From a virus (Duplodnaviria > Caudoviricetes), in IMG/VR virus record IMGVR_UViG_3300021963_000141, positions 1 to 60,081 of that record: a stretch of 60,081 nucleotides of DNA. One strand, written 5' to 3'. This document shows, piece after piece, positions 34,265 through 55,006 of this stretch; the stretch's first letter is position 1; every line of letters starts with the position of its first letter. The position numbers and the translations under genes are program-made. The notes under the pieces are model-generated. The model had not been told where the DNA came from, made no database searches, and saw only the letters and a list, made by a program, of their open reading frames with translations.

Positions 34265-34408
34265 TTATTTTGTTACCGCATTATATATCAGTACAAATAA
34301 AAATCCAACAGTGCCTCCGAATATCGTAAAGCACTGTCGTGGATATCTTATTAACCATCCTGCAAAGACAACCTTCCAGAAGTTCCAATAAGGATATTTT
34401 TTCTTCAT
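34265..34408 (-). CDS. 47-aa predicted membrane protein (not in ORF track)
   Basis: MKKKYPYWNFWKVVFAGWLIRYPRQCFTIFGGTVGFLFVLIYNAVTK. ATGA overlap with the HNH stop. Confidence 0.7.
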   Translation of the reverse strand: MKKKYPYWNFWKVVFAGWLIRYPRQCFTIFGGTVGFLFVLIYNAVTK

Positions 34409-35475
34409 TGAATAAATCGAGATGTTACAGTTTCTCTATGATGAATAATATCATCATTAATAGAATTTTTAACTAATTCAAGTACTTTCAATATCCTAGA
34501 ATCTTTTTCATTTTCAATTAATAACTCAATTTCTTTTATTTTATGTTTCTGCCATTCCAAATGACATTCTTCAGTTGAATCAAAAGATCCGAGATAACTT
34601 TTTCCAATCCTTGCATTATATCTAATATTCTTCATTTTTGTTGGATTAGATAAGTTTACTCCAAGAGGATACTTTCCTCTTTTTTTAAAACTTAAAATAT
34701 TAATTAAATTATAAGAAGTTATCACACAGTTTTCTGGACAATATTCATTACCTTTAATTAAGTAAAATATTGAATCTTTATCAATTTTTTGATTCTCTAT
34801 CCAAATCTTAAATCCTGAATACTTTTTCCATTCCTCACAAATAGTTTTATTTTTTGTTTTACACTCCTTCAATATTCTTAACCATCTTTTATAAGTCGGA
34901 GAGTGTCTCCCTTCGAATTCAACATCATTAACTCCAATACTATAAGCATAATCCTTTTTTAAAGAATTGCTTACCTTTCTTAGATATTCTTTGTCTCTTT
35001 TCCACGATGCTTTATTTTCTTCAATGGACATCCATTCCAGATTACTAACATGATTGTTTAGTTTATTTCTATCTTTATGATCAATTGAATCATAATTGTA
35101 AGGATTTGGAATAAATGCCTCTGCTACTAATCTATGAATATTTGCCTTTCTTTGACGCAGATATTTTCCATTCTCATCCCGAAGCGTGATATTAATGGAA
35201 GGATACTGATATTTTGTGTGGGCAGGATTTCCTCTCAGATGTGTATTCAGAGGTATCAATCCATACTCATTTAATTCTGTATACCTATCATATTTTCCAG
35301 GCGCTCTATATGCTTTTCCCTCATCACTAATGTAATATCCAGGATATTGGGTTTCTCTTATATTCTCCGGAATTTTTATAGGGGGGAATTTTGGAGGGTC
35401 GATTATATTATACCTGTTCTTTAGATAATATCTTCGTTTTGCCTCTTTCTGTTTTTGTGGGTCTTTATATGGCAT
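34405..35475 (-). mobile_element. Free-standing HNH homing endonuclease
   Basis: IHRLVAEAFIPNP...IDHKDRNKLNNHVSNLEW (HNH_3 pattern), plus a second HNH-like/AP2-like C-terminal half. Confidence 0.88.
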
Positions 35476-35965: not shown

Positions 35966-36223
35966 TCAGAAATCAAACACGTCAGAGTTAATCTCAAGGA
36001 CGTTAATCTTGGGGTCCTTGAATGATACTCCGTCAGGCGTCTTTAGGGAATTAAAAGAACACGCTTCCAGAGCATCTACGAACTCAGAGTAATCACCACA
36101 CTCACGGGCAAGACTATAGAAACCCTCATCATTTTGAATCCACAGTGCAACATTCCAGGTCTCATAATTCGTCCAACCGTTATACTCAGTGTCGGACAGA
36201 TTTGCTTGGTAAGTGACAGTCAT
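35966..36223 (-). CDS. Conserved phage hypothetical protein
   Basis: YNGWTNYETWNVALW motif, widespread in phages. Confidence 0.8.
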   Translation of the reverse strand: MTVTYQANLSDTEYNGWTNYETWNVALWIQNDEGFYSLARECGDYSEFVDALEACSFNSLKTPDGVSFKDPKINVLEINSDVFDF

Positions 36224-36254
36224 TTGGAGAAAAGTTTAGTGGGAAAAGTGTGAC

Positions 36255-36434
36255 TCAGGAGATTACAAATACACAGTCGGGGTGATGATCTTCGCACCAA
36301 TAAGTAGCAGGATAACCACTCTCAGAACAGTGATCATTCATTCGATCAACCTCATTCTGTGCTTGAGATTCAGTCAGGTGAGAGTAATGAACTCGGGTCT
36401 GATTCTGAAACTTAGAGTAGACTGCGAATGTCAT
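36255..36434 (-). CDS. 59-aa hypothetical protein (not in ORF track)
   Basis: MTFAVYSKFQNQTRVHYSHLTESQAQNEVDRMN..., in-strand and downstream of repeat copy 1. Confidence 0.55.
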   Translation of the reverse strand: MTFAVYSKFQNQTRVHYSHLTESQAQNEVDRMNDHCSESGYPATYWCEDHHPDCVFVIS

Positions 36435-36480
36435 TTGGGGAAGAAAAGTGTTGTTGAGGGGTGAACTGTTGCCCCCCCCC

Positions 36481-36518
36481 CATACTACTAAGACACTTTA
36501 GAGGTGAGTAACTTTAAT
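36481..36518 (-). repeat. 38-bp cassette/promoter motif, copy 1
   Basis: ATTAAAGTTACTCACCTCTAAAGTGTCTTAGTAGTATG, followed by a G-run. Confidence 0.95.
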
Positions 36519-36528
36519 ACCCTACTAA

Positions 36529-36702
36529 TCACCAACGGTCAGGTGTACTTAAGTCCTCAACGTAAGCATCACACTTCTCTGCAGGTTCCAACTTGAATAA
36601 CTTCTCCCAGTCAATCTGATGTGGGTCGAAGTCAGGAAACGCTTGAATGTCTAGAGTGATGCGATAACGAACCTTCTGTGCCTGGTTGTATGCTACTGAC
36701 AT
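36529..36702 (-). CDS. Hypothetical protein
   Basis: Likely start MSVAYNQ at 36702, with an AAGGAG RBS and a promoter at 36730-36758. Confidence 0.7.
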   Translation of the reverse strand: MSVAYNQAQKVRYRITLDIQAFPDFDPHQIDWEKLFKLEPAEKCDAYVEDLSTPDRW

Positions 36703-36729
36703 AAGTGCGCTCCTTGTGTTACTGAAAGT

Positions 36730-36758
36730 ATTGTAAGATGCTGGGCGGATTTTGTCAA
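36730..36758 (-). promoter_or_regulatory. Sigma70 promoter (leftward)
   Basis: TTGACA-N17-TACAAT. Confidence 0.8.
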
Positions 36759-36830
36759 TGAGTCTGGGGATATTTATGAGGGACCTGTGTATTTTTGTGC
36801 GGGATGTGTGGGGATTTTGTGACGGGGCGC

Positions 36831-36859
36831 TTGACAATTTCTTGGAGGTGTGATAGCTT
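36831..36859 (+). promoter_or_regulatory. Sigma70 promoter (rightward, into the DnaA-box cluster)
   Basis: TTGACA-N17-TAGCTT with an extended TG. Confidence 0.55.
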
Positions 36860-36904
36860 GCAGGCAAAGATCACAAGGTCCAGAAGGATTTAAATGACTA
36901 TAAG

Positions 36905-36968
36905 TTTTCCACAATTCTAACAGTTTTTCCACACATTTATTATACTTTTTCCACAACATTGTGGAAAA
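36905..36968. promoter_or_regulatory. Cluster of four DnaA boxes
   Basis: TTTTCCACA at 36905, 36925 and 36947, and inverted TGTGGAAAA at 36960. All match TTWTNCACA and the cyanobacterial box. Confidence 0.75.
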
Positions 36969-36994
36969 CTAATATCATTATTTCAACACTTAAA

Positions 36995-37002
36995 TATAAA
37001 TA
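36995..37002 (+). promoter_or_regulatory. T4 late promoter TATAAATA for the GIY-YIG gene
   Basis: Exact consensus 26 nt upstream of the ATG. Confidence 0.7.
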
Positions 37003-37028
37003 ACGCAAGTATATTTTTCATCAATTCA

Positions 37029-38042
37029 ATGGCATATATCTATTCAATTACCAACCTTGAGAATAGCAAACTCTATGTGGGAAAGACTACTCAACCCAAC
37101 CCATATGATAGATGGAAGCAACACTTACAGAACGCAAGAAGTAAGGATAATTTAGCAGAGAACAATTCAGTTCATTCTATGCCTATTGTTCGTGCCATAT
37201 GTAAATACGGAGCAGACAACTTTAAGTTTAGAGTATTGGAAGAATGTAGTGATGATGATGTTAATGAACGTGAAACCTTTTGGATAAACAAACTTGATAC
37301 TTGTGGTAAGAATGGGTATAACATTACGTTAGGTGGTGATGGTGTAAAGAAACCACGAAAGTATTGGGCAAATCATCCACATTCTAAAGCAGTGAGTTGT
37401 TATACATTAGAAGGTGAATGGGTTAGAGACTATGAGAGTGTGGGAATTGCTGCTGATAGTTGTGGAAATAAAAAGGGAAAAACTGGGATAATTGCTTGCA
37501 TTAAAGGTACGACATTTCAAGCACTTGGATATAGATGGGCGTGGAAAGGTGAAACTCCTAAAGTAATAGAGAAAAGAGTAAATGTTCGTGGTGTTGTATA
37601 TGGTATCAATCCAACATTAGGACGTAAAAAGATGTGGAAATCTATGGCAGATGCAGCAGAAGAAATACAAGGAAATCGTACAAATAATCACGCTATTCAT
37701 CACTCACTTAACAGTCCTGACAATAGCAAATTACAGGTAAAAGGTTGGTATTTCTTTAGATCAAAACCAACAGATTGGACACCAGCAACAAAAGCACATT
37801 CAATAGAACACTATAAAAAAATTGCTGCAATTAGCAATGAAAAGAGAAAGAAACCTGTCTATGGTGTGAGTATTAAAACCAATGAAATTGTGGAGTTTGG
37901 TAGTATGAGTGAGGCATCATTTTTTATTAAAGGTGAAGGTAACTATAGTGGAGTTGCTAATATCAAAAACAACATTCAACGTATAAACAATGGGCAAACT
38001 TGGTGCAATGCTTATGGTTATAGATGGTATGAAAAAGCATAA
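37029..38042 (+). mobile_element. GIY-YIG homing endonuclease with NUMOD1-like repeats (seg-like)
   Basis: YIYSITN..NSKLYVGKT, R.KQH, AI.KYG..NFKF..LE, E..WI, GYNIT.GG. Three C-terminal S..AA...GY.W repeats. Antisense to its neighbours. Confidence 0.92.
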
Positions 38043-38070
38043 AAAAGAGGGTATAATCCCTCTCTCTTTA
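38041..38070. terminator. Bidirectional terminator between convergent genes
   Basis: A6-GAGGG-loop-CCCTC-T-rich. Confidence 0.6.
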
Positions 38071-38321
38071 TTGATTCTCAGTAGCAAAAGTTTCGATTCC
38101 GTTGATTGCTCGATTGCCTAGATTTGCAATCCCATTGAATCCTACTGTTGAAAGAATGATACCAGTGATAACTCCAATCAGAAACTTAGACATTAGATAA
38201 GGTGTGCAGGTGATCCACAAGACTTATAGAAATCAACCATTCTTTTTGCCTCTTCAAGTGTACTGAATGATTGAGTTCTCCACTGTTGTTGATAAGGAGT
38301 GAAGTAGCGAATCGTGAACAT
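38068..38321 (-). CDS. Two tiny coupled ORFs (38068-38193, 41 aa, hydrophobic N-terminus; 38193-38321, 42 aa)
   Basis: MSKFLIGVITGIILSTVGF... and MFTIRYFTPYQQQWRTQSF..., with stop/start overlaps. Confidence 0.6.
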
Positions 38322-38322
38322 T

Positions 38323-38520
38323 TCAGTTATCAAGTTGGTAAACAGTTTGAGTCAGTTTGTCTAGAAGTTCAGGAGTGAAAAGTTCAACAATCGGTTTCGG
38401 TTCTTCATCATCATTGCAATCATAATACAGTTGACATTCATACTCCCAAGCAAGATCTTCATCTAGAGTCATCAGATTCTCTAGTTGTTGTTCAATAGAG
38501 CGAATGAGTTGTTGATTCAT
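38323..38520 (-). CDS. Acidic hypothetical protein
   Basis: In-strand, tightly packed ORF. Confidence 0.65.
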   Translation of the reverse strand: MNQQLIRSIEQQLENLMTLDEDLAWEYECQLYYDCNDDEEPKPIVELFTPELLDKLTQTVYQLDN

Positions 38521-38522
38521 AA

Positions 38523-38726
38523 TCAGGCAGCGATTGCAGATTCCATACGAACTGTTTTTGTATCAATCAAAGCATAGTCATAGTCACCTTCTTCAAGTTT
38601 TTGAGCATATGCTTCTGCAGCAGATTTGCAATCAAACAAACACAGGGAATCAAAGTGCTCGCCTTCATAATTCCAACCGCCAATCACAGCGTAAACTTTC
38701 ATCTGGGAGAATTGTGCAGTGGTCAT
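38523..38726 (-). CDS. Hypothetical protein; ATG supplied by repeat copy 2
   Basis: VYAVIGGWNYEGE..LFDCKSAAEAY. Confidence 0.7.
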   Translation of the reverse strand: MTTAQFSQMKVYAVIGGWNYEGEHFDSLCLFDCKSAAEAYAQKLEEGDYDYALIDTKTVRMESAIAA

Positions 38727-38761
38727 ACTACTAGGACACTTTGAAGGTGAGTAACTTTAAT
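38724..38761 (-). repeat. 38-bp motif, copy 2
   Basis: ...CACCTTCAAAGTGTCCTAGTAGTATG. The upstream stop is directly adjacent (38762). Confidence 0.95.
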
Positions 38762-39085
38762 TCAGCGAAGAATCATACCTTCAGTGAATGGAATTGGGGC
38801 ATTGTTGTCTGCATCAATGATAACCCATTCGAAGTTCTTTTGAAAGATTCTTGCACCATTTGCGTGCTCTGAAAGAATAGCATTGAGACGCGATTTGGTA
38901 GTTACAGTTTGATACCCACAGTGATAAAGTTCAATAAAAGTATCACCTACAGTTGCAATATGATTCCCGTGCAGATACACATAAGAGGCATCTCTTTCAG
39001 GAGAATAGAGAACCTCAGTGTTGTCATTCTTCCAATCCTTACAGTTAAGAATGGCGGTGTTCATTTGCTTTTCGATGATACGCAT
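38762..39085 (-). CDS. Conserved phage hypothetical protein; single-gene unit between repeats
   Basis: VYLHGNHIA...TTKSRLNAIL motif. Confidence 0.75.
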   Translation of the reverse strand: MRIIEKQMNTAILNCKDWKNDNTEVLYSPERDASYVYLHGNHIATVGDTFIELYHCGYQTVTTKSRLNAILSEHANGARIFQKNFEWVIIDADNNAPIPFTEGMILR

Positions 39086-39103
39086 TGTCAGAAGTGCAGT
39101 GGT

Positions 39104-39141
39104 GATACTACTAAGACGCTTTGGAGGTGAGTAACTTTAAT
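39104..39141 (-). repeat. 38-bp motif, copy 3
   Basis: ...CACCTCCAAAGCGTCTTAGTAGTATC. Confidence 0.95.
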
Positions 39142-39153
39142 TGTCGTAGAGTT

Positions 39154-39489
39154 TCAGTTACGCATCAGTGAAAGATACCCATCCTCAGAGAGACAATCCT
39201 CAGAGAGTTGCACATTACGAGCACAGGCAATCGCATCAGCAAAGACATCAAACTTCCCAAAGGTTTTCTGTGTTCCACACCAGCAACCTTTGTATTCGTA
39301 AATCATTGCTTCGACAGAGAATACATCCTCCATTGTGTTAGAATCTACACTGTGCTTGATGTAAACTTTTCCGTCATTTCGGGTGTACTTATCAAACATC
39401 GAGGACTTGAAAGTACGCTTGAAATCAGTTACAAACTCAGCAGTGAGATCAGTATTCTGAGCGAAGAGATTTACGAAGTGAGCAGTCAT
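39154..39489 (-). CDS. Hypothetical protein; single-gene unit between repeats
   Basis: 111-aa in-strand ORF filling the space between copies 4 and 3. Confidence 0.7.
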   Translation of the reverse strand: MTAHFVNLFAQNTDLTAEFVTDFKRTFKSSMFDKYTRNDGKVYIKHSVDSNTMEDVFSVEAMIYEYKGCWCGTQKTFGKFDVFADAIACARNVQLSEDCLSEDGYLSLMRN

Positions 39490-39504
39490 TTGAAGTTCAG
39501 TGGT

Positions 39505-39542
39505 GATACTACTAAGACACTTTGAAGGTGAGTAACTTTAAT
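39505..39542 (-). repeat. 38-bp motif, copy 4
   Basis: ...CACCTTCAAAGTGTCTTAGTAGTATC. Its TAA ends a 46-aa ORF at 39538-39678. Confidence 0.95.
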
Positions 39543-39875
39543 TCGGCGTTACATATGGTCCTTCAACTTCACAAAACTCTAGAAGAAAGTAATCAATACT
39601 AACACCAAGTTCATCTGCAAACTGTAGATTTTCTTGGTATTGCTCTTGTGAAAGAATATAGAACTCAGTCTCAATCATTGTCGATTTGTCCTCCTTTCAG
39701 TTCAACATTGTCCAGTACAGTAACAACTTGTTGTGTTGGAGTTAGATACTCAATTTGCAATACATTCGGTGCAATCTCACTTGAACCGATGATTGTAGAT
39801 GCTAACAGGATTTCAAGCATAATCAGTGGTGAAAGTAATAACGAAGAACGACAGATGTGAACAAAGAAAAACTAA

Positions 39876-40070
39876 TCATTGGACAACATCATAGGCAAGA
39901 GATTTAATACACCAACCAGTGTTGTTTGTAATTGTATCAGTCAATTCTTCCTCAGAAGGTGAAGTCCAGAGGCAAGACATTGTATCCTGAATGATTACAT
40001 CTTTCTCCTCTTGAGTGAGATCTTCATAGTCGAAATCAAACTCAATTTCAGTTACTTTGTAATAGTTCAT
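39876..40070 (-). CDS. Hypothetical protein
   Basis: VTEIEFDFD...ITNNTGWCIKSL.Y, a familiar cyanophage small-ORF pattern. Confidence 0.7.
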   Translation of the reverse strand: MNYYKVTEIEFDFDYEDLTQEEKDVIIQDTMSCLWTSPSEEELTDTITNNTGWCIKSLAYDVVQ

Positions 40071-40160
40071 TGTGTTAGTTTTTGTTCAGGTGATTGAGAA
40101 GAAGAATGTGTCCTGCACCTAAAGTATAAGCAACAAGAACAAGAATACCAGTTACCATTG

Positions 40161-40343
40161 TCAGTTACCAAAGAAAGAATTAAACTCATCTGCAATCTGA
40201 TCAATCAGTTCATCAGTTGCATCAAGGTCAAAGAGACAACAAACAAAATCTACACAATCATTCAAATCTGTGTGATTGTTGCACATAAACTCCAGAAGTG
40301 CAGGAGTGATGTCGGTTTGGAAGTCAGGAGAAGTGTTGTTCAT
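40161..40343 (-). CDS. Acidic hypothetical protein; ATG supplied by copy 5
   Basis: The ORF starts inside the repeat. Confidence 0.7.
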   Translation of the reverse strand: MNNTSPDFQTDITPALLEFMCNNHTDLNDCVDFVCCLFDLDATDELIDQIADEFNSFFGN

Positions 40344-40378
40344 ACTACTAGGACACTTTGAAGGTGAGTAACTTTAAT
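40341..40378 (-). repeat. 38-bp motif, copy 5
   Basis: Supplies both the TAA (40374) of the upstream ORF and the ATG (40343) of the downstream ORF. Confidence 0.95.
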
Positions 40379-40712
40379 TGCCCAGACAATACTTGACAAA
40401 TAGTGTGTGCTCTAGTTCGTGTGCTTCTCGCTCACGCTCTTCATCATCAAACAACCCGCGAAGAGTTTGTGTAACGTGAACCAACTCGTGTAGCAGGGTG
40501 ATAATATAATCGGACACGCTCAAATCGTTGTGAATTGAAATCAGAAACTCATCATCGTCTGATTGTTCACACCAACCAAATACACCATCATCAACTAGAT
40601 TTGTGTGAAAGACTTCAACATTCACATTCACCAAATCAGTTTGTGATGCAAACCAGTCAAAGACTTGAGATGCTATTTGTTTCTTTTGTTTCGTGCCAGA
40701 AGTGTAAAGCAT
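40374..40712 (-). CDS. Small HExxH zincin-like metallopeptidase
   Basis: TLLHELVHVTQ with downstream E.EA. Confidence 0.7.
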   Translation of the reverse strand: MLYTSGTKQKKQIASQVFDWFASQTDLVNVNVEVFHTNLVDDGVFGWCEQSDDDEFLISIHNDLSVSDYIITLLHELVHVTQTLRGLFDDEEREREAHELEHTLFVKYCLGN

Positions 40713-40726
40713 CGTCAGTCAGGGGT

Positions 40727-40764
40727 GATACTACTAGAACGCTTTAGAGGTGAGTAACTTTAAT
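40727..40764 (-). repeat. 38-bp motif, copy 6
   Basis: ...CACCTCTAAAGCGTTCTAGTAGTATC. Confidence 0.95.
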
Positions 40765-41355
40765 TCAGAACAGATTGCGACCGAATTGACCACACAGATA
40801 GAACGCCATTCCTTTATCCTTAAGCGTCACACCTGCAAAACGGAGAGGAACATATGCACCGTTGGTTTTTGATGCTTTCGTGCGAATCTGCAGCAAACGA
40901 TTAGGTCCAGTGATAGTATTCAACTCGCTTTCTTCATCAAATGCACGACGAATCTTGCTGCAAATGAACTCATAATCCTCACGCAGTTCCTGATAGTGTT
41001 CGGGATGAGTTTCCTCATTCAGTACAACAGAACCCACATAATCGTTCTCACGGGTGAAACCAACATACACAGTTTGCTTCAGTTTCTGTCCAACCTTACT
41101 CTCATCAAATGACACTGCATCTTGAATGATTTCAGATAGACAATGCTTCAACTGTGTGGCAGCAATGCTTTCACCAACTGTAAAAGTCTTAATCTCACCA
41201 TCCTCCAGATCTTTCAGGTCGGAGGAGTTAGGAACTCCGAGCACGGTTTCTAACAGTTGCCCACGAGCACCTTTGTTCTTTCCAGGTTTCTCAAATACAC
41301 TGAAATCAGTTACTTTGAGTTTACCAAAAACCTCATTTACTGTAAGTTTCGTCAT
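40765..41355 (-). CDS. MutH/Sau3AI-family endonuclease
   Basis: NKG..GQLLE..LG..NSS..D....EIKT (PD-(D/E)XK), L.EDYE.I, G...LLQIRTK, AFYL. This is the MutH/Sau3AI pattern. Confidence 0.75.
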   Translation of the reverse strand: MTKLTVNEVFGKLKVTDFSVFEKPGKNKGARGQLLETVLGVPNSSDLKDLEDGEIKTFTVGESIAATQLKHCLSEIIQDAVSFDESKVGQKLKQTVYVGFTRENDYVGSVVLNEETHPEHYQELREDYEFICSKIRRAFDEESELNTITGPNRLLQIRTKASKTNGAYVPLRFAGVTLKDKGMAFYLCGQFGRNLF

Positions 41356-41368
41356 TGGATTGAGTGCT

Positions 41369-41406
41369 GATACTACTAGGACACTTTAGAGGTGAGTAAC
41401 TTTAAT
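41369..41406 (-). repeat. 38-bp motif, copy 7
   Basis: ...CACCTCTAAAGTGTCCTAGTAGTATC. Confidence 0.95.
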
Positions 41407-41664
41407 TCAACTCTCTTGTGTTACACTTTCCACCAAATCATTCACGAACTCTTCATCATAGAATTGACTAATCTCTTCGATTAGTTCATCAGGTGCAGAG
41501 CAAGTTGCACGGAGATTCTCTTCAATCGTATCACTTGCAAATTGTACCAAACTGTCGAGGTCCATACCATCAACAATCTGCTCAATGTAGAGTGCAAGCA
41601 GTTTATCGTATTGGTCTTGAGTAAGTTCCATTTTTGTGTTTGGATTAGGAAGGGAAATCATCAA
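41407..41664 (-). CDS. Acidic hypothetical protein
   Basis: YIEQIVDGMDL..L; its stop is adjacent to the repeat. Confidence 0.7.
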   Translation of the reverse strand: MMISLPNPNTKMELTQDQYDKLLALYIEQIVDGMDLDSLVQFASDTIEENLRATCSAPDELIEEISQFYDEEFVNDLVESVTQES

Positions 41665-41835
41665 TCAGGAAACGACAGAGTAACAAGCAACGGAGGAAGG
41701 AATCCCACCTAGTTGTAAAGAACCGTTGCGGTCATCACAATACTCTTGGGCATCATCTTCAGAGTAGAAAGGTCCAATGTGCTCTGGAGAATCCAGAGCA
41801 TCAGAATCAAAACGGACGGTGAAAGTGTTGCTCAT
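41665..41835 (-). CDS. 56-aa hypothetical protein; ATG supplied by copy 8 (not in ORF track)
   Basis: MSNTFTVRFDSDALDSPEHIGPFYSEDDAQEYC... Confidence 0.65.
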   Translation of the reverse strand: MSNTFTVRFDSDALDSPEHIGPFYSEDDAQEYCDDRNGSLQLGGIPSSVACYSVVS

Positions 41836-41870
41836 ACTACTAGAACACTTTAGAGGTGAGTAACTTTAAT
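41833..41870 (-). repeat. 38-bp motif, copy 8
   Basis: ...CACCTCTAAAGTGTTCTAGTAGTATG. Confidence 0.95.
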
Positions 41871-42013
41871 TATTTGAAAGTTACGTTGACACCAACAATC
41901 TTTGCTGTAGGATTGCGTGCTTGTGCAGTCTCACGCGCATCTTTTGGAGAGTTAGCATACACTTCTTCTTTGAAGACTTTACCACCGACATACAGTTGGA
42001 CTTCGTATTTCAT
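41870..42013 (-). CDS. 47-aa conserved cyanophage small protein (not in ORF track)
   Basis: MKYEVQLYVGGKVFKEEVYANSPKDARETAQARNPTAKIVGVNVTFK. Confidence 0.75.
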   Translation of the reverse strand: MKYEVQLYVGGKVFKEEVYANSPKDARETAQARNPTAKIVGVNVTFK

Positions 42014-42204
42014 AGTGTTTGCCAGGGTTGTGCTTCTTTGATGTTAGAATTGAAAAACTTTTGAAGAATGGAACTAATCACAGGTTGCCATTCTTTATCT
42101 TTAATTAGGTCACGATTTTGTGCTTCAACAAGAAACTTAAGGATACAAGTCTCTTCATTGGCAGTGAACTTAACGCGAGTGAAAGTGTAACCGTCAGTCA
42201 TCAA
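42010..42204 (-). CDS. Hypothetical protein
   Basis: In-strand ORF with an ATGA overlap. Confidence 0.65.
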   Translation of the reverse strand: MMTDGYTFTRVKFTANEETCILKFLVEAQNRDLIKDKEWQPVISSILQKFFNSNIKEAQPWQTL

Positions 42205-42528
42205 TCGTCTCCAAAGTTGTTAGCAAGAAAGTCCTCAAGTTCATTGAGTTTGGATTCACTTAGATTCCAAACATATTCGCTGATTACTGTATCAAACAAA
42301 TCAGCATCTTCACGGCATTTCTCTTTGAGAAACCACTCAAGTTCAGTGCGGTTAATCATAATCAAACAGGGGTAACTTCAACAGAACGAATAAGATTTGT
42401 GCGATCTTGTGCTAGATAATCATCAGCGATTTTACCACAAGATGAACGAGATTGGATAATCTTTTCCTCATAAAGGTTCTCATCTTCATCAGGAACCCAA
42501 TACTCAATCAGCATACGATAGGTTTTCA

Positions 42529-42780
42529 TCAGAAGTGTGCCTCAGAGTAGTCAAGAACTTCGCTGTACTTAGCGATACCATCATAGCAACGCTTTGCCAT
42601 TTCAGAATCACCTTCAGCAACGTAACCTTTCAGAAACTCGAAGCAGTATTTGATACGCAGTTCGGGTGCAACTGCAGCGAGTTGTTGTTGCTTACGTTGC
42701 TGATAATTTGCGTTGTATGCAAACATTTCACGATCTTCGAGAGAGATGTTGTGAAACTTGCGGTCGGTAGTGTTGGTCAT
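42529..42780 (-). CDS. Hypothetical protein; ATG supplied by copy 9
   Basis: The ORF starts inside the repeat. Confidence 0.7.
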   Translation of the reverse strand: MTNTTDRKFHNISLEDREMFAYNANYQQRKQQQLAAVAPELRIKYCFEFLKGYVAEGDSEMAKRCYDGIAKYSEVLDYSEAHF

Positions 42781-42815
42781 ACTACTAGGACACTTTGAAG
42801 GTGAGTAACTTTAAT
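42778..42815 (-). repeat. 38-bp motif, copy 9
   Basis: ...CACCTTCAAAGTGTCCTAGTAGTATG. Confidence 0.95.
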
Positions 42816-42821
42816 TACTTG

Positions 42822-43076
42822 TCACCACGTTCCTCTTTGGATGTGGATTTTGCGAATCTCCTGATAAATGAACTGACGAAGTTTAGGGTCGGTAGTGTTA
42901 TCAAAAGCATAATAAAGACGATTTAGATACTCATCCTGTGTGGAACCTATGTTACCATCACCACCGATGTCATTGAGTGAAGAACCTGCTCTAGACTTTG
43001 GGCGTCCGAAGTTACCTGTTACATTGCCCGATGTTCTCAACTTCGGGCGAATCTTTGAGAGATTAGAGTAAGTCAT
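42822..43076 (-). CDS. Hypothetical protein
   Basis: SNLSKIRPKLRT.G.VTGNFG motif. Confidence 0.7.
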   Translation of the reverse strand: MTYSNLSKIRPKLRTSGNVTGNFGRPKSRAGSSLNDIGGDGNIGSTQDEYLNRLYYAFDNTTDPKLRQFIYQEIRKIHIQRGTW

Positions 43077-43248
43077 TCTTCATCCTCATCATAAGGGAAC
43101 ATTTCGTCGTATTCTTCGTCAGTTAGAGTAAGATACTGAACATCAGCATTTCTATGCTCTTCAGCATACATTAACTGATAATGTGCGAAGTTTGAGGGAC
43201 TGGTGCTAGCATATTCTAGCAGACCATCGACAAAACAAAGGTAGTTCA
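43073..43248 (-). CDS. Acidic hypothetical protein
   Basis: Likely start near MNYLCFVDG, within ORF 43073-43282. Confidence 0.6.
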
Positions 43249-43251
43249 TAA

Positions 43252-43683
43252 TCAACGAGCATACAAATACCCCCCGCTCCAATCTGCATTTTCCAGCAGA
43301 TACTCACGATCTTTAATCAATCGCAGGTCATAACGTACACCTTTCGCAGGAGATTTCCAAGTGGCAGACTTATATACTTCGCCAGTGTTCTTGTCAATGA
43401 AACAATGAACACTGCGGGAACCGCCACCATTCACAAAGATAACTTTGTGATACTTTTTACCAGTTTCTACCTGATAATCAATCGGGCAAATACCAAACTT
43501 AAGTTCATCAATACAACGCTGATGATACTCTTGAGTGTCAGCATCATTCACGAACTTTTGATGACCGCGAATAGAATACTGAATGTAGTTTTGCTTGAGT
43601 GCTTCAATCAGCAGCAGAGTGTTCTTATACACATTCTCTGCGATGGTTTGCTTTGCTTGTGCTTGCATTGTAGTGTTGCTCAT
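43252..43683 (-). CDS. Conserved phage hypothetical protein; ATG supplied by copy 10
   Basis: GKKYHKV...SVHCFIDK.TGEVYKSATWKSPAKGVRY. Confidence 0.8.
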   Translation of the reverse strand: MSNTTMQAQAKQTIAENVYKNTLLLIEALKQNYIQYSIRGHQKFVNDADTQEYHQRCIDELKFGICPIDYQVETGKKYHKVIFVNGGGSRSVHCFIDKNTGEVYKSATWKSPAKGVRYDLRLIKDREYLLENADWSGGYLYAR

Positions 43684-43718
43684 ACTACTGGGACACTTTG
43701 AAGGTGAGTAATTTTAAT
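43681..43718 (-). repeat. 38-bp motif, copy 10 (two variant bases)
   Basis: ATTAAAATTACTCACCTTCAAAGTGTCCCAGTAGTATG. Confidence 0.93.
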
Positions 43719-44629
43719 CAACCCCAATTCTTTACCAGATTGAAGTTTGCGCGGGAGAATTGGTAACGATCAATAACTTTCATCATACCAAATTGATTCG
43801 TCATCACATAACCTTCGTGGTCAGACTTTTCCCCATCAATGTAACACTGGATACTCTCATCAGTGTGAATGAAGAAGAATAAATCCATCTTGATTGAATA
43901 CACCAACTTCCACAAACGCAGCAGGTTGATGTCAACATCATAATTTTCTGCAATTTCGTGCTCGCAGACCTCCTTACCCTCACGAATGTAGGAATTGATG
44001 ACTTTTTTGATTTCTGTTGCCTTGCGCTCAGACAAAAACTCACATAGAGTGCTCATCTGTTTGGCAAACTTACTGATGTCTTCCAGATCTTCACGATAAG
44101 GACAAATATCAGCTTTAGGACTCACAAACTTTGCATAATGAGTGTCTGTGATGATAAAGTCCATCGGGTAAGCAACAGCATCCCTCAGATCTTTATCAGC
44201 AACGTAGAACGTATGGGGAGCAACAATAATCTCCTGATGGACTACCTCAGGGAACTTGTAAGTGATCGTATTGGGGCGAAAAGTATCAGAACCACCAAAA
44301 CCGATAAAATCACCTTGAAAGATATAATCTGTGCGAGGAAGATAATCAAGGCAAGCGTGAAGAATAGACGCAACTTTACCCTGATGGTTCGTATCAATTT
44401 CATCGTGAGAATGATTGATTTTGATTTTTACTTTGTTGAACACAGATTTGGTGCCCACAAAGAACTTGCCATTGGCAGGATTGCGACCCCACACAATAGC
44501 AGGAGCACCATCCATCTTCACGCTGATAGTAGAATCAGCGGAGAACCAATCAAGAACCGAAAGATCACCATTAAGGATGCTATCTTCGGGGTGCTCAAGA
44601 TGTTTGTTCTGCATTGATTGCTTGCTCAT
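43718..44629 (-). CDS. Ligase/nucleotidyltransferase-superfamily protein (DUF6267-like)
   Basis: HLEHPED, motif I-like SVKMDGAP, QGDF, HEGYV, MKVIDR..FSRANF. Confidence 0.7.
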   Translation of the reverse strand: MSKQSMQNKHLEHPEDSILNGDLSVLDWFSADSTISVKMDGAPAIVWGRNPANGKFFVGTKSVFNKVKIKINHSHDEIDTNHQGKVASILHACLDYLPRTDYIFQGDFIGFGGSDTFRPNTITYKFPEVVHQEIIVAPHTFYVADKDLRDAVAYPMDFIITDTHYAKFVSPKADICPYREDLEDISKFAKQMSTLCEFLSERKATEIKKVINSYIREGKEVCEHEIAENYDVDINLLRLWKLVYSIKMDLFFFIHTDESIQCYIDGEKSDHEGYVMTNQFGMMKVIDRYQFSRANFNLVKNWG

Positions 44630-44664
44630 ACTACTATGACACTTTGAAGGTGAGTAACTTTAAT
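44627..44664 (-). repeat. 38-bp motif, copy 11
   Basis: ...CACCTTCAAAGTGTCATAGTAGTATG. Confidence 0.95.
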
Positions 44665-44668
44665 TACT

Positions 44669-44872
44669 TCAAACTTCCATCAGTTTCTGTAAACGATTGC
44701 GAATGTCAAACAGTTCCATTTCATCCATATCTACATCATCAAGACCAACAGGAGCAAACTCTTCAAGATTTACACTACCATTTTGCATAATGGGAGCATA
44801 ATACAACTCATCACCATCTTCTTGTGAGAGAGTATAAACGCAACCGTGACCAGGAACAGTGAGAAAAATCAT
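44669..44872 (-). CDS. Hypothetical protein; single-gene unit
   Basis: Fills the space between copies 12 and 11. Confidence 0.7.
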   Translation of the reverse strand: MIFLTVPGHGCVYTLSQEDGDELYYAPIMQNGSVNLEEFAPVGLDDVDMDEMELFDIRNRLQKLMEV

Positions 44873-44885
44873 TGTTTTGAGTGCT

Positions 44886-44923
44886 TACACTACTAGGACG
44901 CTTTGGAGGTGAGTAACTTTAAT
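44886..44923 (-). repeat. 38-bp motif, copy 12
   Basis: ...CACCTCCAAAGCGTCCTAGTAGTGTA. Supplies the TAA of the methylase. Confidence 0.95.
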
Positions 44924-45476
44924 CCAGTGGTAGTTTTGCTTCTGATGTACTCTTTGGAATTACAAGTTCCTCCATAATGATTTGCTTCGGCAAAAAGTTC
45001 CAACAATAGTAACTAGAACTGAAGGTAATCTTGTCGTTTGCACGACCATCAGGACTATGAAACTTCATACGCTTATCAAACATCAACAGTTGCAAGTCTT
45101 TGTCCTTGAATAACTGCTTAGGAGCACTATCATTCAACCAAGTGTTAGTCATAATGAGAGCAAATGGTTTCTCAAATGATAATGCTCGCTCGAAGAACTT
45201 GCGTTTGTTTGTGAATGGTGGATTGGACACAATTACATCCCACTCAAAGTCAGGAACATAAGTGAGAAAGTCTTGCCCAGTTGAAATGTGGGTATGAATG
45301 ACTGTATTATGTGGAGAGATTTGCTTTACAAACTCACTCTCAGCAGTATCAAATGGACACCAAACCTTTGCATCTTTGGGGATGTATTTCAGAATGGGAG
45401 TTACACCGTATTCTGGAGTGTAACATTCGTCGTTGTTACCTCCAGAGTACATCAGTTTTCCACTATCAAGCGTCAT
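44919..45476 (-). CDS. Small N6-adenine/N4-cytosine DNA methyltransferase
   Basis: DECYTP, VWCPFD (SAM-binding), GQDF, IVSNPPF (catalytic motif IV). Confidence 0.8.
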   Translation of the reverse strand: MTLDSGKLMYSGGNNDECYTPEYGVTPILKYIPKDAKVWCPFDTAESEFVKQISPHNTVIHTHISTGQDFLTYVPDFEWDVIVSNPPFTNKRKFFERALSFEKPFALIMTNTWLNDSAPKQLFKDKDLQLLMFDKRMKFHSPDGRANDKITFSSSYYCWNFLPKQIIMEELVIPKSTSEAKLPLD

Positions 45477-45970
45477 ACAATGCGAGTCCCAAACTGTTGG
45501 ATTTCTTTCTTAGTCAGACTACCAGAAAGGCGGGGATCTTTGTGCTTACCGTGAATCTTACGCTCCCAATCTTTCTTGAGTTTGGGTAGAAGAATCATCA
45601 GCACATCGTTACCAGTAAGTTTCCACACTTCCACCACTTTGCCACTCTCATAGCGAGCAATGTAGTGGTTAGAGTATTTACCAAGTTTCTCTTCAATCAG
45701 ATAACGCTCCTGCTCTTCCCAAGTATCTTGAACACTGATACCATTATAGGTGCCATTGATAGAATTGGCAATGGTTGATTTATACTCACATTCACCATTT
45801 TCATCCACAGCATCAGCACCAGAATAAGTATCTGCTACTTTATGCCCAAGAATACCAGCAAGGTGAATCTCACGAGAGCGAGCATAAGAGAATGGATCTC
45901 CCCAACCCTGTTCTTCACAAAGTTGATACATCTGCTCAAATAGTTCTTGAAACTTTTGTTCAGGAGTCAT
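45473..45970 (-). CDS. Putative PD-(D/E)XK (restriction-like) endonuclease
   Basis: RE.HLA..LG...GADA.DENGECEYKS. Translationally coupled to the methylase. Confidence 0.6.
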   Translation of the reverse strand: MTPEQKFQELFEQMYQLCEEQGWGDPFSYARSREIHLAGILGHKVADTYSGADAVDENGECEYKSTIANSINGTYNGISVQDTWEEQERYLIEEKLGKYSNHYIARYESGKVVEVWKLTGNDVLMILLPKLKKDWERKIHGKHKDPRLSGSLTKKEIQQFGTRIV

Positions 45971-45982
45971 TTATGGAGTGCC

Positions 45983-46020
45983 TATACTACTACAACACTT
46001 TGAAGGTGAGTAACTTTAAT
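45983..46020 (-). repeat. 38-bp motif, copy 13
   Basis: ...CACCTTCAAAGTGTTGTAGTAGTATA. Supplies the TAA at 46016. Confidence 0.95.
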
Positions 46021-46201
46021 TGATAGGAAGTTTGCCTAATGACTTACCTTTCTTATGGTCTGTGATGTACTTTCGTGCTGATGCTTCTGTCCTACAGAGT
46101 TTCTCAAGTTGCTGACCATTGTGGATGATGAGATACTGATTGCCATAGGGAATCGCAGCGTAAGTATCTTTGAACATCGTAAATCCTTGCTTCATAATCA
46201 C
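46016..46201 (-). CDS. Hypothetical protein
   Basis: YAAIPYGNQYLIIHNGQQL motif; coupled to the helicase stop. Confidence 0.7.
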   Translation of the reverse strand: MIMKQGFTMFKDTYAAIPYGNQYLIIHNGQQLEKLCRTEASARKYITDHKKGKSLGKLPIN

Positions 46202-47439
46202 CTCCGCACCACACTGATTGCAGGTTCGCCCTTCTCGAAGATAGTGTCAACCACAGACTGCACAGCACGAGCAGTAGCAATACCAACCTTAGAATACACA
46301 GGAATACAAACCAGACCGAACGATTTGCTATACTGACTCAGATTGCCAGGTTCGATACGTCCATCGCGCAAACCTTTGGCATCATCGTGATGCAAACGAA
46401 TGCAACGTCCGATGGTCTGACTGATGCCAATGAAGTCCATATTGCGAAGGAACAGCACTGCTTCCAGACCGCTGACGTTGATACCTTCTGCGAGGATGGA
46501 GTGGTGAAGAACAACGAACTTCTTGTCGTTATCTTTACCCCAGGCACTCAGGGTATCAAAGAATACCTCACGGTTCACTTTCTTACCATCAATAACTGCA
46601 CCCGTCTGGGCAGTAATATACATCCACGAATAACCGCGACATTCCAACTGGAAGCAGAAATCAGTTTCAGTTACCAGCGATACGATTTGCTTGGTTGCCT
46701 TAGCACAAATCAGAATCTTGCCAACCTTGTTGTCATCAATGGTTTCCAACAGATTCTCAGAGTCACGGTCGAAGTTAGTCTGCTTTCCCTGTACCATCTG
46801 CAGTTGCTTGACAATCACTTTAGGGGGCACAATGTAACCACCCTCAACCAACTCAGGAGCAGGAACTTTGCAGATTACCTGACCATATACGTCAGTATCA
46901 TTCATACCTGCCTTACCCACAGCAACCGAATGTTTCGGAGTTGCAGTGAAGAAGTAGCAGCGACGTGCATTAGCAGCGAAGTGCTCAGTTGCGGGGAAAA
47001 AGTGACGCTGAACAGAATTATGTGCCTCATCAAAGTAGATGGTATCCACATCAATTCCTGCCACTTGAAGACGCGACAGTGAGTTGTAGGTGGTTACAAT
47101 CAGGCGATGATTGTTGGCATTAGCATCACACCAACGACGAATCTCATAAGGGCGAGTAGAAGATTCGTGATGAGTTTCGCCACTGTGAACGTGCAGAACT
47201 TCAGCGTTAGTGATAAACTCCAGAAACTCAGAAGAGAGTTGCTCAGCAAGCAAAATGCGCGGAGCAACAACAACAATCGTCTGGGGAGTTTCAGACTGCA
47301 ACTCGCGCAGACAATCATAAATCATCTTCAGAGTCTTACCACCACCAGTAGGTACAATGATTTGACCTTTGTTGTGCTTTTGCATTGCAGCAACGCCACG
47401 TTCTTGATGAGGGCGAAGTTGAATCAAATCAGAGAACAT
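46198..47439 (-). CDS. SF2 DEAH-box helicase (ResIII-like)
   Basis: LRPHQ, PTGGGKT, APRILL, FDEAHN, FTATP, LAEGINV, QTIGRCIR. Confidence 0.92.
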   Translation of the reverse strand: MFSDLIQLRPHQERGVAAMQKHNKGQIIVPTGGGKTLKMIYDCLRELQSETPQTIVVVAPRILLAEQLSSEFLEFITNAEVLHVHSGETHHESSTRPYEIRRWCDANANNHRLIVTTYNSLSRLQVAGIDVDTIYFDEAHNSVQRHFFPATEHFAANARRCYFFTATPKHSVAVGKAGMNDTDVYGQVICKVPAPELVEGGYIVPPKVIVKQLQMVQGKQTNFDRDSENLLETIDDNKVGKILICAKATKQIVSLVTETDFCFQLECRGYSWMYITAQTGAVIDGKKVNREVFFDTLSAWGKDNDKKFVVLHHSILAEGINVSGLEAVLFLRNMDFIGISQTIGRCIRLHHDDAKGLRDGRIEPGNLSQYSKSFGLVCIPVYSKVGIATARAVQSVVDTIFEKGEPAISVVRR

Positions 47440-47480
47440 TACGAATTACAGTGTTTCAGGTGGTTTGGTATCTAGAAAGC

Positions 47481-47516
47481 ATTATAGCACGCTTACAGGC
47501 GATTGTGAAGCGTGCT
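47481..47516 (-). promoter_or_regulatory. Sigma70 promoter overlapped by an inverted repeat
   Basis: TTCACA-N17-TATAAT with TG; AGCACGCTT/AAGCGTGCT arms. Confidence 0.75.
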
Positions 47517-47530
47517 GTGAGTGTTCTGCT

Positions 47531-47568
47531 TATACTACTATAACACTTTGGAGGTGAGTAACTTTAAT
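47531..47568 (-). repeat. 38-bp motif, copy 14
   Basis: ...CACCTCCAAAGTGTTATAGTAGTATA. Confidence 0.95.
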
Positions 47569-47573
47569 TCAAC

Positions 47574-48251
47574 TCAACTTTCAGATGCTTGTGCTGCTGC
47601 TTTTGCTTTTGCTCTCATCTGAACAGCAACTTTACTGTTCCATTTACCACCATCTGCTTCATATTCTTTACGCATTTGTGCAAGAATCTCAGTAGCAGAT
47701 TTCTTAGTCTTTTGTGCTGCCGCAGTCTTTTCTCTATTTCTAGCAGCATCTCTTTCTGCTCTTGTCATAGGAGCACCACTATCAGTTCTCCACTGTCTGC
47801 GTGGTGCTGCTGGTTTCTTCTCTTGTTGTGGTTTTGCTTGAGCGATTGCTTGTGATGCAGTCTTTGGTTGCTCTTTACCACCTTCTTTTGCTTTACGCTC
47901 AAGGTATGCTTTACGCTGTCTTTCTTTAGCAGTCATTGCAGCACTTCCTTGAGTTCCTGCAGTTCCTGGTTTCAATTCTGTTGCACCTTGACCTCTTCCA
48001 GGTGCAGGTGCTGAAGAACCTCTTTGCTGACCAACATCTTTGCGTGTTTTGTATGGACCAACAGGTTCAGTTCTTCCACCACCAACTGCTTTTACTCTGC
48101 GTATTTCAACAGGACTCTTTTTGCGTTCTTTGCCTATTCTACCACCAGCACCAGTTTTGATGATGGAAGCACCACCACCCCAACCAAGTTGACTAGCAGC
48201 ATCGGCATCAGATGCTTCGCAAAGAGACATAAACTGTTGAAATGTACGCAT
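47574..48251 (-). CDS. Basic low-complexity protein with capsid-targeting-like N-terminus
   Basis: MRTFQQFMSLCE; K/R/A/G-rich; CTAAATA late promoter at ~48278-48284. Confidence 0.75.
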   Translation of the reverse strand: MRTFQQFMSLCEASDADAASQLGWGGGASIIKTGAGGRIGKERKKSPVEIRRVKAVGGGRTEPVGPYKTRKDVGQQRGSSAPAPGRGQGATELKPGTAGTQGSAAMTAKERQRKAYLERKAKEGGKEQPKTASQAIAQAKPQQEKKPAAPRRQWRTDSGAPMTRAERDAARNREKTAAAQKTKKSATEILAQMRKEYEADGGKWNSKVAVQMRAKAKAAAQASES

Positions 48252-48280
48252 TGGTCTATCTAAACACTTCTTTTTAGTAT

Positions 48281-48481
48281 TTAGAACTCCTCTTCCTTTG
48301 CTTTATAGGAACCTTTGAACACACGACCTTCAGCATAGAATTGCTTCACACGCTCACGACGAGTAGCAAGAAGCAAATCATACTCTTCTTGCTGTTGCTT
48401 ACTGAAAGTGAAATCCTGTCGCCTCCAAGTCTCTTTAAGTTCGTTGATGTGATGAAGCACGTTAGGGATTTGTTCAGTCAT
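48281..48481 (-). CDS. Hypothetical protein
   Basis: In-strand ORF; W..QDF.F..QQ..Y..L...RRERV. Confidence 0.7.
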   Translation of the reverse strand: MTEQIPNVLHHINELKETWRRQDFTFSKQQQEEYDLLLATRRERVKQFYAEGRVFKGSYKAKEEEF

Positions 48482-48541
48482 TTGAGTATGATAATGGAAA
48501 AGTGTTTAGTGTGTGAGGTTGAGTGGACAGTTTGAGAACTG

Positions 48542-48679
48542 TCAGTAATCAATGTTGGAGTTGAGATAAGAATTGAAAGATTTGTCGTTCTCTTCTTCTT
48601 CAAAGAGACCTTCATTCATCTCTTCAACGAAATCAAAAGAAGAGAACTCTTCAATTTGAACATCATCAAAATGATCCAT
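48542..48679 (-). CDS. 45-aa very acidic protein (not in ORF track)
   Basis: MDHFDDVQIEEFSSFDFVEEMNEGLFEEENDKSFNSYLNSNIDY, downstream of copy 15. Confidence 0.6.
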   Translation of the reverse strand: MDHFDDVQIEEFSSFDFVEEMNEGLFEEEENDKSFNSYLNSNIDY

Positions 48680-48696
48680 TGTTAGAATCAGTTGCC

Positions 48697-48734
48697 TACA
48701 TTACTAGAACACTTTCAAGGTGAGTAACTTTAAT
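48697..48734 (-). repeat. 38-bp motif, copy 15
   Basis: ...CACCTTGAAAGTGTTCTAGTAATGTA. Confidence 0.93.
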
Positions 48735-51106: not shown

Positions 51107-51126
51107 TTTTACAAACGCTTTTTAGA

Positions 51127-51134
51127 TATTTATA
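51127..51134 (-). promoter_or_regulatory. T4 late promoter TATAAATA
   Basis: Exact consensus, intergenic. Confidence 0.75.
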
Positions 51135-51136
51135 AA

Positions 51137-52312: not shown

Positions 52313-52394
52313 TATCTCTTGACTTTTTGATTATTTATTGTATAATTCCACTTGAGTATTACACTCACACACCACACACATTAGGAGAATATCT

Positions 52395-52598: not shown

Positions 52599-52602
52599 AG
52601 TT

Positions 52603-52629
52603 AAAGGAGGGTTTTATCCCTCCTTTTTT
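52603..52629. terminator. Bidirectional terminator
   Basis: AAAGGAGGG-loop-CCCTCCTTTTTT between convergent genes. Confidence 0.75.
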
Positions 52630-52630
52630 A

Positions 52631-54016: not shown

Positions 54017-54039
54017 TTGTCTTTGTAAATTACCTCTTA

Positions 54040-54968: not shown

Positions 54969-55006
54969 TACATTACTAAAACACTTTAGAGGTGAGTAAC
55001 TTTAAT
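54969..55006 (-). repeat. 38-bp motif, copy 16
   Basis: ...CACCTCTAAAGTGTTTTAGTAATGTA. Supplies the TAA of dam. Confidence 0.93.

Follow-up and report, generated by a model that had tools for sequence, protein, structure and literature searches.

The genomic window and the repeated element

The window analysed here is the entire 60,081-bp viral record IMGVR_UViG_3300021963_000141 of IMG/VR (35.7% G+C, rated 29% complete), in which the minus strand holds nearly all genes. The open reading frames (ORFs) with PHROGs matches include those for the large and small terminase, neck, sheath-stabiliser and baseplate wedge proteins, giant baseplate ORFs of 3983 and 2608 amino acids (aa), a helicase, two DNA methyltransferases and two homing endonucleases. 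These matches identify the window as a fragment of a T4-like cyanomyovirus. Its large terminase (TerL) is about 86% identical to those of the Synechococcus phages SynMITS9220M01, S-SM2, S-SCSM1 and Bellamy and of the Prochlorococcus phage P-TIM68, all of them Kyanoviridae. Before its small genes the window carries a repeated element of about 38 nucleotides (nt), which is the subject of this analysis. We assign a probability of about one half to the reading that each copy is a two-part phage promoter, heading one unit of small, probably early, cyanomyovirus genes.

Throughout the text, positions within the element follow the initial annotation of this DNA, with +1 being the first of the element's last three bases. 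Sixteen minus-strand matches to the 13-nt core, AAAGTTACTCACC, contain no more than a single mismatch. When two mismatches are allowed, 18 matches are found, compared with a mean of 1.90 and a maximum of 5 in 100 shuffled sequences; the two extra matches, at 17603 and 59521, were not counted as family members. A repeat search reported a 53-nt family with 13 copies within 36000-47000. Judged by the +1 position, the family extends from 36483 to 54971, and the range annotated initially (38724-44664) covers copies 2-11. The consensus in the window is ATTAAAGTTACTCACCT-YY-AAAGYGTYN-TAGTAGT/RTR-AGCAMC, where the slash stands directly before +1. The block from -35 to -19, described previously as invariant, does hold except for one base in one copy, and the hexamer at -12 to -7 indeed has no A at -11 if the purine is +1. 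All 16 copies are oriented with the genes, and each occupies a gap of 30-68 nt before its gene unit. A unit comprises 1-13 small ORFs, and inside the units the starts overlap or abut the preceding stop. The copies are as follows.

Copy 1, 36481..36518, minus strand: positions -35 to +3; terminal ATG, then a run of ten G
Copy 2, 38724..38761, minus strand: terminal ATG is the start of ORF 38523-38726
Copy 3, 39104..39141, minus strand: terminal ATC; ATG 21 nt past +1; ORF 38762-39085, Kyano_Gp96 family
Copy 4, 39505..39542, minus strand: terminal ATC; ATG 18 nt past +1; ORF 39154-39489
Copy 5, 40341..40378, minus strand: terminal ATG is the start of ORF 40161-40343
Copy 6, 40727..40764, minus strand: terminal ATC; ATG 17 nt past +1; ORF 40374-40712
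Copy 7, 41369..41406, minus strand: terminal ATC; ATG 16 nt past +1; ORF 40765-41355
Copy 8, 41833..41870, minus strand: terminal ATG is the start of ORF 41665-41835, with no other in-frame ATG nearby
Copy 9, 42778..42815, minus strand: terminal ATG is the start of ORF 42529-42780; five-ORF unit
Copy 10, 43681..43718, minus strand: one mismatch in the box; terminal ATG is the start of ORF 43252-43683 (DUF7717)
Copy 11, 44627..44664, minus strand: terminal ATG is the start of ORF 43718-44629 (DUF6267); codon 6 is a second in-frame ATG
Copy 12, 44886..44923, minus strand: terminal GTA; ATG 16 nt past +1; ORF 44669-44872
Copy 13, 45983..46020, minus strand: terminal ATA; ATG 15 nt past +1; ORFs 45473-45970 and 44919-45476
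Copy 14, 47531..47568, minus strand: terminal ATA, then a sigma70-like site at 47509-47481; helicase gene 46198-47439
Copy 15, 48697..48734, minus strand: terminal GTA; ATG 20 nt past +1
Copy 16, 54969..55006, minus strand: terminal GTA; ATG 18 nt past +1; unit of 13 ORFs

Seven copies end in the triplet ATG, four in ATC, two in ATA and three in GTA. The initial annotation had stated that copies 2, 5, 8, 9, 10 and 11 end in the ATG of the downstream ORF; this is correct and applies to copy 1 as well, giving 7 of 16 (+1 at 36483, 38726, 40343, 41835, 42780, 43683 and 44629). It had also described a leader of 12-18 nt, devoid of a Shine-Dalgarno (SD) sequence, after most of the other triplets, and this is what is seen in 8 of the 9 copies that do not end in ATG, where the ATG of the ORF lies 15-21 nt past +1 (12-18 nt past the triplet). 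Direct inspection of the sequence showed that GGAG, GAGG and AGGA are absent from all leaders in the window. The common continuation ACCACTG after copies 2-4 was likewise found as described. The ninth copy without a terminal ATG (+1 at 47533) lies 94 nt ahead of the helicase ATG, with a sigma70-like TTCACA-17-TATAAT in between.

In copy 1 the ATG runs into ten G residues (36472-36483, minus strand), and the ORF in that frame ends after 23 codons. A 59-aa ORF at 36255-36434 is in a different frame from this ATG, and another length of the G-run would fuse the two. Either a slip in the assembly or a tract of variable length could account for the G-run.

Other signals in the window

The window holds three separate classes of signals: ATAAATA boxes, a few sigma70-like sites, and the 38-nt element. 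The ATAAATA boxes precede the structural genes starting at 5651, 17748 and 32036; the late promoter box of T4 is of the TATAAAT type (PMC3037559). The initial annotation mentioned ordinary promoters in the vicinity of the element, and a few good minus-strand sites do exist (47509-47481 and 36758-36730), but consensus sigma70-like sites are not enriched, with 52 in the window against 45.1 in shuffled sequences (standard deviation 5.0). The consensus sigma70 scan calls none of the element copies, except for a weak 9-of-12 call at 40399-40371 that overlaps copy 5. A TTGACA-like -35 hexamer at a distance of 16-18 nt upstream is absent from the window copies, which carry TACTCA or TTACTC there. The T4 late (gp55) box about 10 nt before the start is absent too, and the element has YYAAAGYG at that place.

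Relatives of the element and its two-part build

IMG/VR contigs contain the exact distal 16-mer of the element in no fewer than 239 stretches. Of the cultured phages, SynMITS9220M01 carries a nearly identical element in 12 copies, S-SM2 has 12 copies with the same proximal half and a quite different distal box, AAGGGGGGTCG, and P-TIM68 has about 16 copies of a diverged variant that was found in P-TIM68 only. The proximal half is confined, among cultured isolates, to SynMITS9220M01 and S-SM2; the uncultured single-cell record AG-345-O18 shows a partial match to it. Syn9, P-TIM40, S-SCSM2R, Bellamy, S-SCSM1 and S-B43 gave no element matches above control. For Syn9 and P-TIM40, a pattern search with up to 3 mismatches stayed at control level, the best nhmmer E-value was 3.5, and k-mer counts brought up only late-type boxes. 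The early region of P-TIM40 (about 50300-55200 of its record) possesses a repeated module of its own, in which a palindrome of 24 bp (TGTGACA-N10-TGTCACA type) is followed by a second box, ACACTACC, then by TATAAT and by a leader rich in A and C. This module is unlike the element in the window.

Comparison of the relatives revealed two parts of different conservation. The proximal half, from about -16 to +8 (AAAGYGTYN-TAGTAGT/RTRAGCA in the window), is common to S-SM2, SynMITS9220M01 and hundreds of contigs. The distal box, from about -30 to -17 (GTTACTCACCT in the window), is uniform within a genome and differs between close relatives. For the statistical analysis two sets of copies, together about 550, were collected from virus contigs: set 1, anchored on the distal 16-mer (306 unique copies), and set 2, anchored on the proximal 16-mer (239 copies). 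They are nearly disjoint, with 4 36-mers in common out of 287 and 206. Counts at the cluster level are based on one representative per cluster of downstream sequences (n = 127 for set 1 and n = 112 for set 2). Set 1 comprises two proximal subtypes, CTATAGT and TAGTAGT. In set 2 the distal boxes found beside the exact proximal 16-mer include CTGGGGCC, CTGGGCCC, CTGAGGCT, CTGAGCCAC and TTGGATCG, and further TTGGATCC, GGGGGGACG, ATAGCTCACC and GTTACTCACC.

The predicted 5' end of the RNA

Outside the anchor, the best-conserved stretch of set 1 is TAGT/RTRA, with TAGT at -4 to -1; a purine is found at +1 in 303 of the 306 copies, T at +2 in 292 and A at +4 in 275, and the 15 nt that follow this stretch are G-poor. 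The first ATG shows a pronounced preference for particular distances from +1. Among the 127 clusters of set 1 the offset is 0 in 36, 1-14 in 5 and 15-24 in 62, and among the 112 clusters of set 2 it is 0 in 35, 1-14 in 4, 15-24 in 45 and 15-27 in 49. Start codons thus lie either on the last three bases of the element or 15-24 nt further on, and hardly ever in between, as would be expected if the 5' end of the RNA were at or very near +1. SD-like cores are present in 2 of 149 leaders.

The bases at +1 and +3 are coupled (set 1: ATG 36, ATA 21, GTG 4, GTA 54, Fisher p = 7e-11; set 2: ATG 35, ATA 21, GTG 4, GTA 46, p = 2e-9), a terminal ATG being favoured and GTG avoided. As a rule, leaderless translation needs AUG, and the pattern agrees with this. 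For 79 of 82 copies with a terminal ATG, the ATG that follows 12-26 nt later shares its frame, as against a split of 45/37/31 among the three frames in copies with other triplets. At the cluster level, 13 cases are in frame and 3 out of frame, compared with 24 and 36 for the other triplets (p = 0.0045); the second comparison gives 10 and 3, compared with 17 and 30 (p = 0.012). This bias indicates that ribosomes read the terminal ATG. The ORF that is opened by the ATG of the element in SynMITS9220M01 has its DUF6267 domain starting already at residue 3, and this ATG must therefore be part of the mRNA. The window's version of the domain starts at residue 8, two residues past the second in-frame ATG. 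One and the same gene is thus attached to the element either directly or via a 15-nt leader. Taken together, the 5' end most likely coincides with +1 or precedes it by a few bases. A start near +7 to +10 is disfavoured because about 30% of the units could then not express their first gene.

Several observations weigh against this assignment. The segment TAGTRT at -4 to +2 is at the same time a conserved TAnnnT (T in 280, A in 275 and T in 292 of 306 copies, and present in 16 of 16 window copies), and C+6/A+7 is conserved as well (A in 224 of 306 copies of set 1 and 204 of 239 of set 2). An ordinary -10 hexamer at TAGTRT with a start near +7 to +10 is thus possible. With the usual spacing of 5-8 nt between a -10 hexamer and its start, TAGTRT would imply a start near +8 to +10, which conflicts with the start-codon statistics. 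The window scan found no terminator-like hairpins flanking the element copies, and as the units are not separated by terminators, the terminal ATG could be translated from read-through RNA, which would also account for the frame and the ATG/GTG statistics. A processed 5' end would yield identical statistics. The copies within both sets are also phylogenetically related, and clustering lessens this kinship but does not remove it.

Could the element then be an ordinary promoter of the host polymerase, with TAGTRT as the -10, transcription starting at +7 to +10, the box lying over the -35, and the terminal ATG being read only from read-through RNA? We regard this as somewhat unlikely. Apart from the conserved TAnnnT and C+6/A+7 and the missing terminators, it draws support from the boxes themselves, many of which read yTGrnn at -27 to -22, a stretch separated from the downstream TAGTRT by 17 nt, while 214 of 239 copies have G at -25, and from the early units of P-TIM40, in which TATAAT is followed by a similar A/C-rich leader. 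However, the first gene begins on the terminal ATG in 36 of 127 and in 35 of 112 clusters (about 30%), many of them with no other ATG nearby, and an RNA that starts downstream could not express the gene that it heads, as exemplified by the one-gene DUF6267 unit of SynMITS9220M01. The scarcity of start codons at offsets 1-14 would be left unexplained, and the -35 region of the window copies reads TACTCA rather than anything TTGACA-like. Moreover, the subtypes CTATAGT and TAGTAGT place the other candidate -10 hexamers (-7 to -2 and -6 to -1) out of register.

An alternative that we consider quite improbable is a signal acting at the level of RNA in long polycistronic early transcripts, either as a cleavage site before the purine or as a ribosome-loading region. 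Contiguous units without terminators and the G-poor downstream stretch of the coding strand are in keeping with it, and a processed end fits the 5'-end statistics as well as a primary one. On the other hand, some 30 conserved upstream bases, including a private box, far exceed the needs of known ribonuclease sites; fold z-scores of the RNA and of both DNA strands range from +1.06 to -0.88, i.e. no better than those of shuffled sequences; no Rfam family matches the element; and a distance to the start codon that varies from 0 to 24 nt is ill-suited to a fixed ribosome-loading site. In these comparisons the element behaves like the head of a transcription/translation unit, and it is likely a promoter-like signal, unlike the standard sigma70 type, that gives leaderless or short-leader messages. 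This was the central proposal of the initial annotation, and it is backed by the start-codon statistics of two nearly disjoint sets, with the reservation that TAGTRT stays a possible -10.

Turnover of the distal box and the mosaic of cassettes

In 16 contigs with 4-11 copies each, the boxes differ on average at 2.79 of 15 nt within a contig and at 7.7 between contigs. Each genome thus appears to impose its own box on all its units. Comparison at an orthologous place was made possible by a conserved 59-aa gene of unassigned function (46016-46195, minus strand) that adjoins the helicase gene. Its relatives were found in at least 163 IMG/VR stretches, of which 80 (73-97% identical) were kept; the box was compared right after the stop of the gene, and 71 of the 80 fetched loci could be parsed. 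These 71 loci carry 27 distinct boxes in 11 groups. Among pairs of the 59-aa protein with at least 90% identity, 94 differ at 5 or more of 12 box positions and 82 share the box. Such divergence beside near-identical proteins indicates that the box is replaced wholesale, and much faster than the protein diverges.

A private box points to a phage-specific reader or to concerted evolution. The proposal of a dedicated reader made in the initial annotation is in agreement with a distal box that is private to the genome, and we consider such a reader plausible. Nevertheless, 2 of the 16 contigs contain one foreign box among their own, and a strictly matched reader is therefore not required at every copy; private boxes could also arise from gene conversion alone, with little constraint on the sequence.

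The copies also mark the borders of gene cassettes. Comparison with SynMITS9220M01 shows additional element-headed units in the window, whose insertion point falls precisely on a copy. Four isolates lack any homologue of three element-bounded, single-gene units (44669-44872, 40765-41355 and 39154-39489). Another unit, 44919-45970 (minus strand), is common to the window and P-TIM68 only, at 56-82% identity, and in P-TIM68 it is headed by that phage's own element, likewise with a 15-nt leader. Its two ORFs, of 165 and 185 aa, show weak matches to PvuII-like endonucleases and to methyltransferases, respectively, and the unit may be a mobile restriction-modification-like cassette.

The gain and loss of cassettes exactly at copies, together with boxes that are uniform within genomes and swapped between near-identical relatives, would also be expected if the copies were recombination seams only, homogenised by gene conversion for cassette exchange and without any role in expression. 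We find this very improbable, as co-orientation with the genes, a position-specific purine, the ATG/GTG coupling and fixed distances to the start codon are features of expression rather than of recombination.

Search for a possible reader of the element

The likeness of the element to the T7 promoter, noted in the initial annotation, is arithmetically right (9 of 13 positions), but the T7-like polymerase domain PF00940 was found in none of the three complete element-bearing genomes (S-SM2, SynMITS9220M01 and P-TIM68), whereas the positive control P-SSP7 matched at 2.7e-69; the window itself is only 29% complete. Two further candidates that had been put forward did not materialise. A dedicated extra sigma factor was not detected, the sole match to sigma70 region 2 being the annotated late sigma factor (gp55). 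As for an RNA guide, there is no convincing antisense copy of the box in the window, and SynMITS9220M01 contains one reverse match to the element (with 3 mismatches) compared with 12 forward ones. The short template-strand hairpin of a promoter for an N4-type virion polymerase is also absent, the DNA of either strand folding no better than shuffled sequences.

Neither the Pfam nor the PHROGs scan (58 and 73 window ORFs) identified a DNA-binding or polymerase domain above the cut-off. The sole hint of a DNA-binding fold among the ORFs of the small-gene region is a weak C-terminal AbrB/MazE-like match below the cut-off (E = 7.6e-4) in the 232-aa ORF 56338-57036 (minus strand). Two large ORFs lie within the same region, 48734-51106 (790 aa) and 51137-52312 (391 aa), both on the minus strand; they have no Pfam match and no homologue in SynMITS9220M01, S-SM2, P-TIM68 or Syn9, and PHROGs returned only a faint match of the 790-aa ORF to phrog_3708 (6.8e-06). 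The 59-aa protein (46016-46195) was rejected as a reader of the box, as its near-identical copies adjoin at least 8 different boxes; a sigma70-like site lies upstream of its gene, which SynMITS9220M01 possesses and S-SM2 does not.

Neighbouring genes

At its low-coordinate end, the element array is flanked by genes for homing endonucleases of the HNH and GIY-YIG types, at 34405-35475 (minus strand) and 37029-38042 (plus strand). Few genes besides the GIY-YIG one lie on the plus strand, and behind it, at 38041-38068, stands a terminator-like hairpin that could act in both directions. The 47-aa ORF 41870-42013 (minus strand) is 91.5% identical at the DNA level, over 59 nt, to a gene of the Synechococcus phage S-SCSM2R annotated as 'RNA polymerase inhibitor', which was the sole megablast match for the 11-kb region; homologues of this ORF are present in SynMITS9220M01, S-SM2 and Syn9.

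Comparison with known systems

In the study of Doron et al. (2016) on Syn9 and P-TIM40, early genes were reportedly controlled by a novel element and middle genes driven by host-like promoters, and such elements are said to be abundant among T4-like cyanophages, in genomes as well as in metagenomes. The resemblance lies in a non-host-like signal before small genes of the early region, beside host-like promoters and T4-late-like boxes. The element described here occurs in the corresponding context, i.e. in a T4-like cyanomyovirus, before small non-structural genes, and separate from host-like and late-type signals. The difference is that no sequence match was found in Syn9 or P-TIM40, and that the early units of P-TIM40 show the 24-bp palindrome and TATAAT instead. 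The element thus fits a lineage-specific variant of the published early-element class, by context and not by detectable sequence. A search of published text for four strings of 9-10 nt from the element returned, among the matches listed, unrelated contexts only (primers etc.).

The promoter-early stem-loop (PeSL) cassettes of T4-type phages (Comeau et al. 2014, PMC4122927) are similar in that repeated, genome-specific promoter motifs in a plastic region border cassettes that vary between relatives; copies of our element likewise delimit cassettes in which related genomes are not alike. Unlike PeSLs, the element has no stem-loop, no terminator before its copies and no near-consensus sigma70 hexamers. 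With T4 middle promoters (Mot box plus -10) it shares an activator-type box in place of the -35 and a short proximal element that is kept. However, the box in the window is unrelated and varies between genomes, and MotA and AsiA are not reported for this group: T4-like cyanophages are said to have neither motA/asiA nor T4-like middle promoters (PMC5780444). The predicted timing would moreover be early, which would bar the products of early genes from the role of reader.

Promoters of the T7 group are likewise long and nearly identical within a family, their specificity region varies by lineage, and transcription starts immediately past a TA-rich stretch, but the conserved span in the window is about twice as long, and the PF00940 polymerase is missing from S-SM2, SynMITS9220M01 and P-TIM68. 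Finally, the intergenic repeats of halovirus HF2 are virus repeats that act as promoters (PMC8707807); they are archaeal, AT-rich motifs of the TATA type with no sequence relation to our element.

Proposed mechanism and implications

In the mechanism that we favour, the proximal half would set the start of the RNA, either on the invariant purine that adjoins TAGT or slightly upstream of that purine. A leaderless message would result if this purine is the A of an ATG; otherwise the message would possess an unstructured, G-poor leader of 15-24 nt without an SD sequence. The distal box would serve as the docking site of a phage-specific factor that recruits the host polymerase and replaces the normal -35 and, if +1 is placed correctly, also the normal -10. 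If the genes are truly early, such a factor would enter with the DNA and hence be present already at injection. The copies also serve as seams for the gain, loss and swap of gene cassettes. Or perhaps a virion-borne, phage-specific protein reads a swappable address box of 12-14 bp with no recognition of a -35 or -10, RNA begins on the start codon itself, and the turnover of the box makes a private code that bars co-infecting relatives or host defences from the early genes? This bolder version strikes us as unlikely.

A large part of the main primary producers of the ocean falls victim to T4-like cyanophages. To our knowledge, how their genes are first switched on is not known, because MotA and AsiA are lacking. 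If the reader turned out to be only the host polymerase with a weak -35, the element would represent an ordinary promoter family with concerted evolution. The swapped boxes on a constant core amount to a natural library for finding the reader, by co-variation or by pull-down, and the two cultured carriers, SynMITS9220M01 and S-SM2, make such experiments feasible. The element family thereby offers a precise predicted 5' end and predicted leaderless translation in picocyanobacteria.

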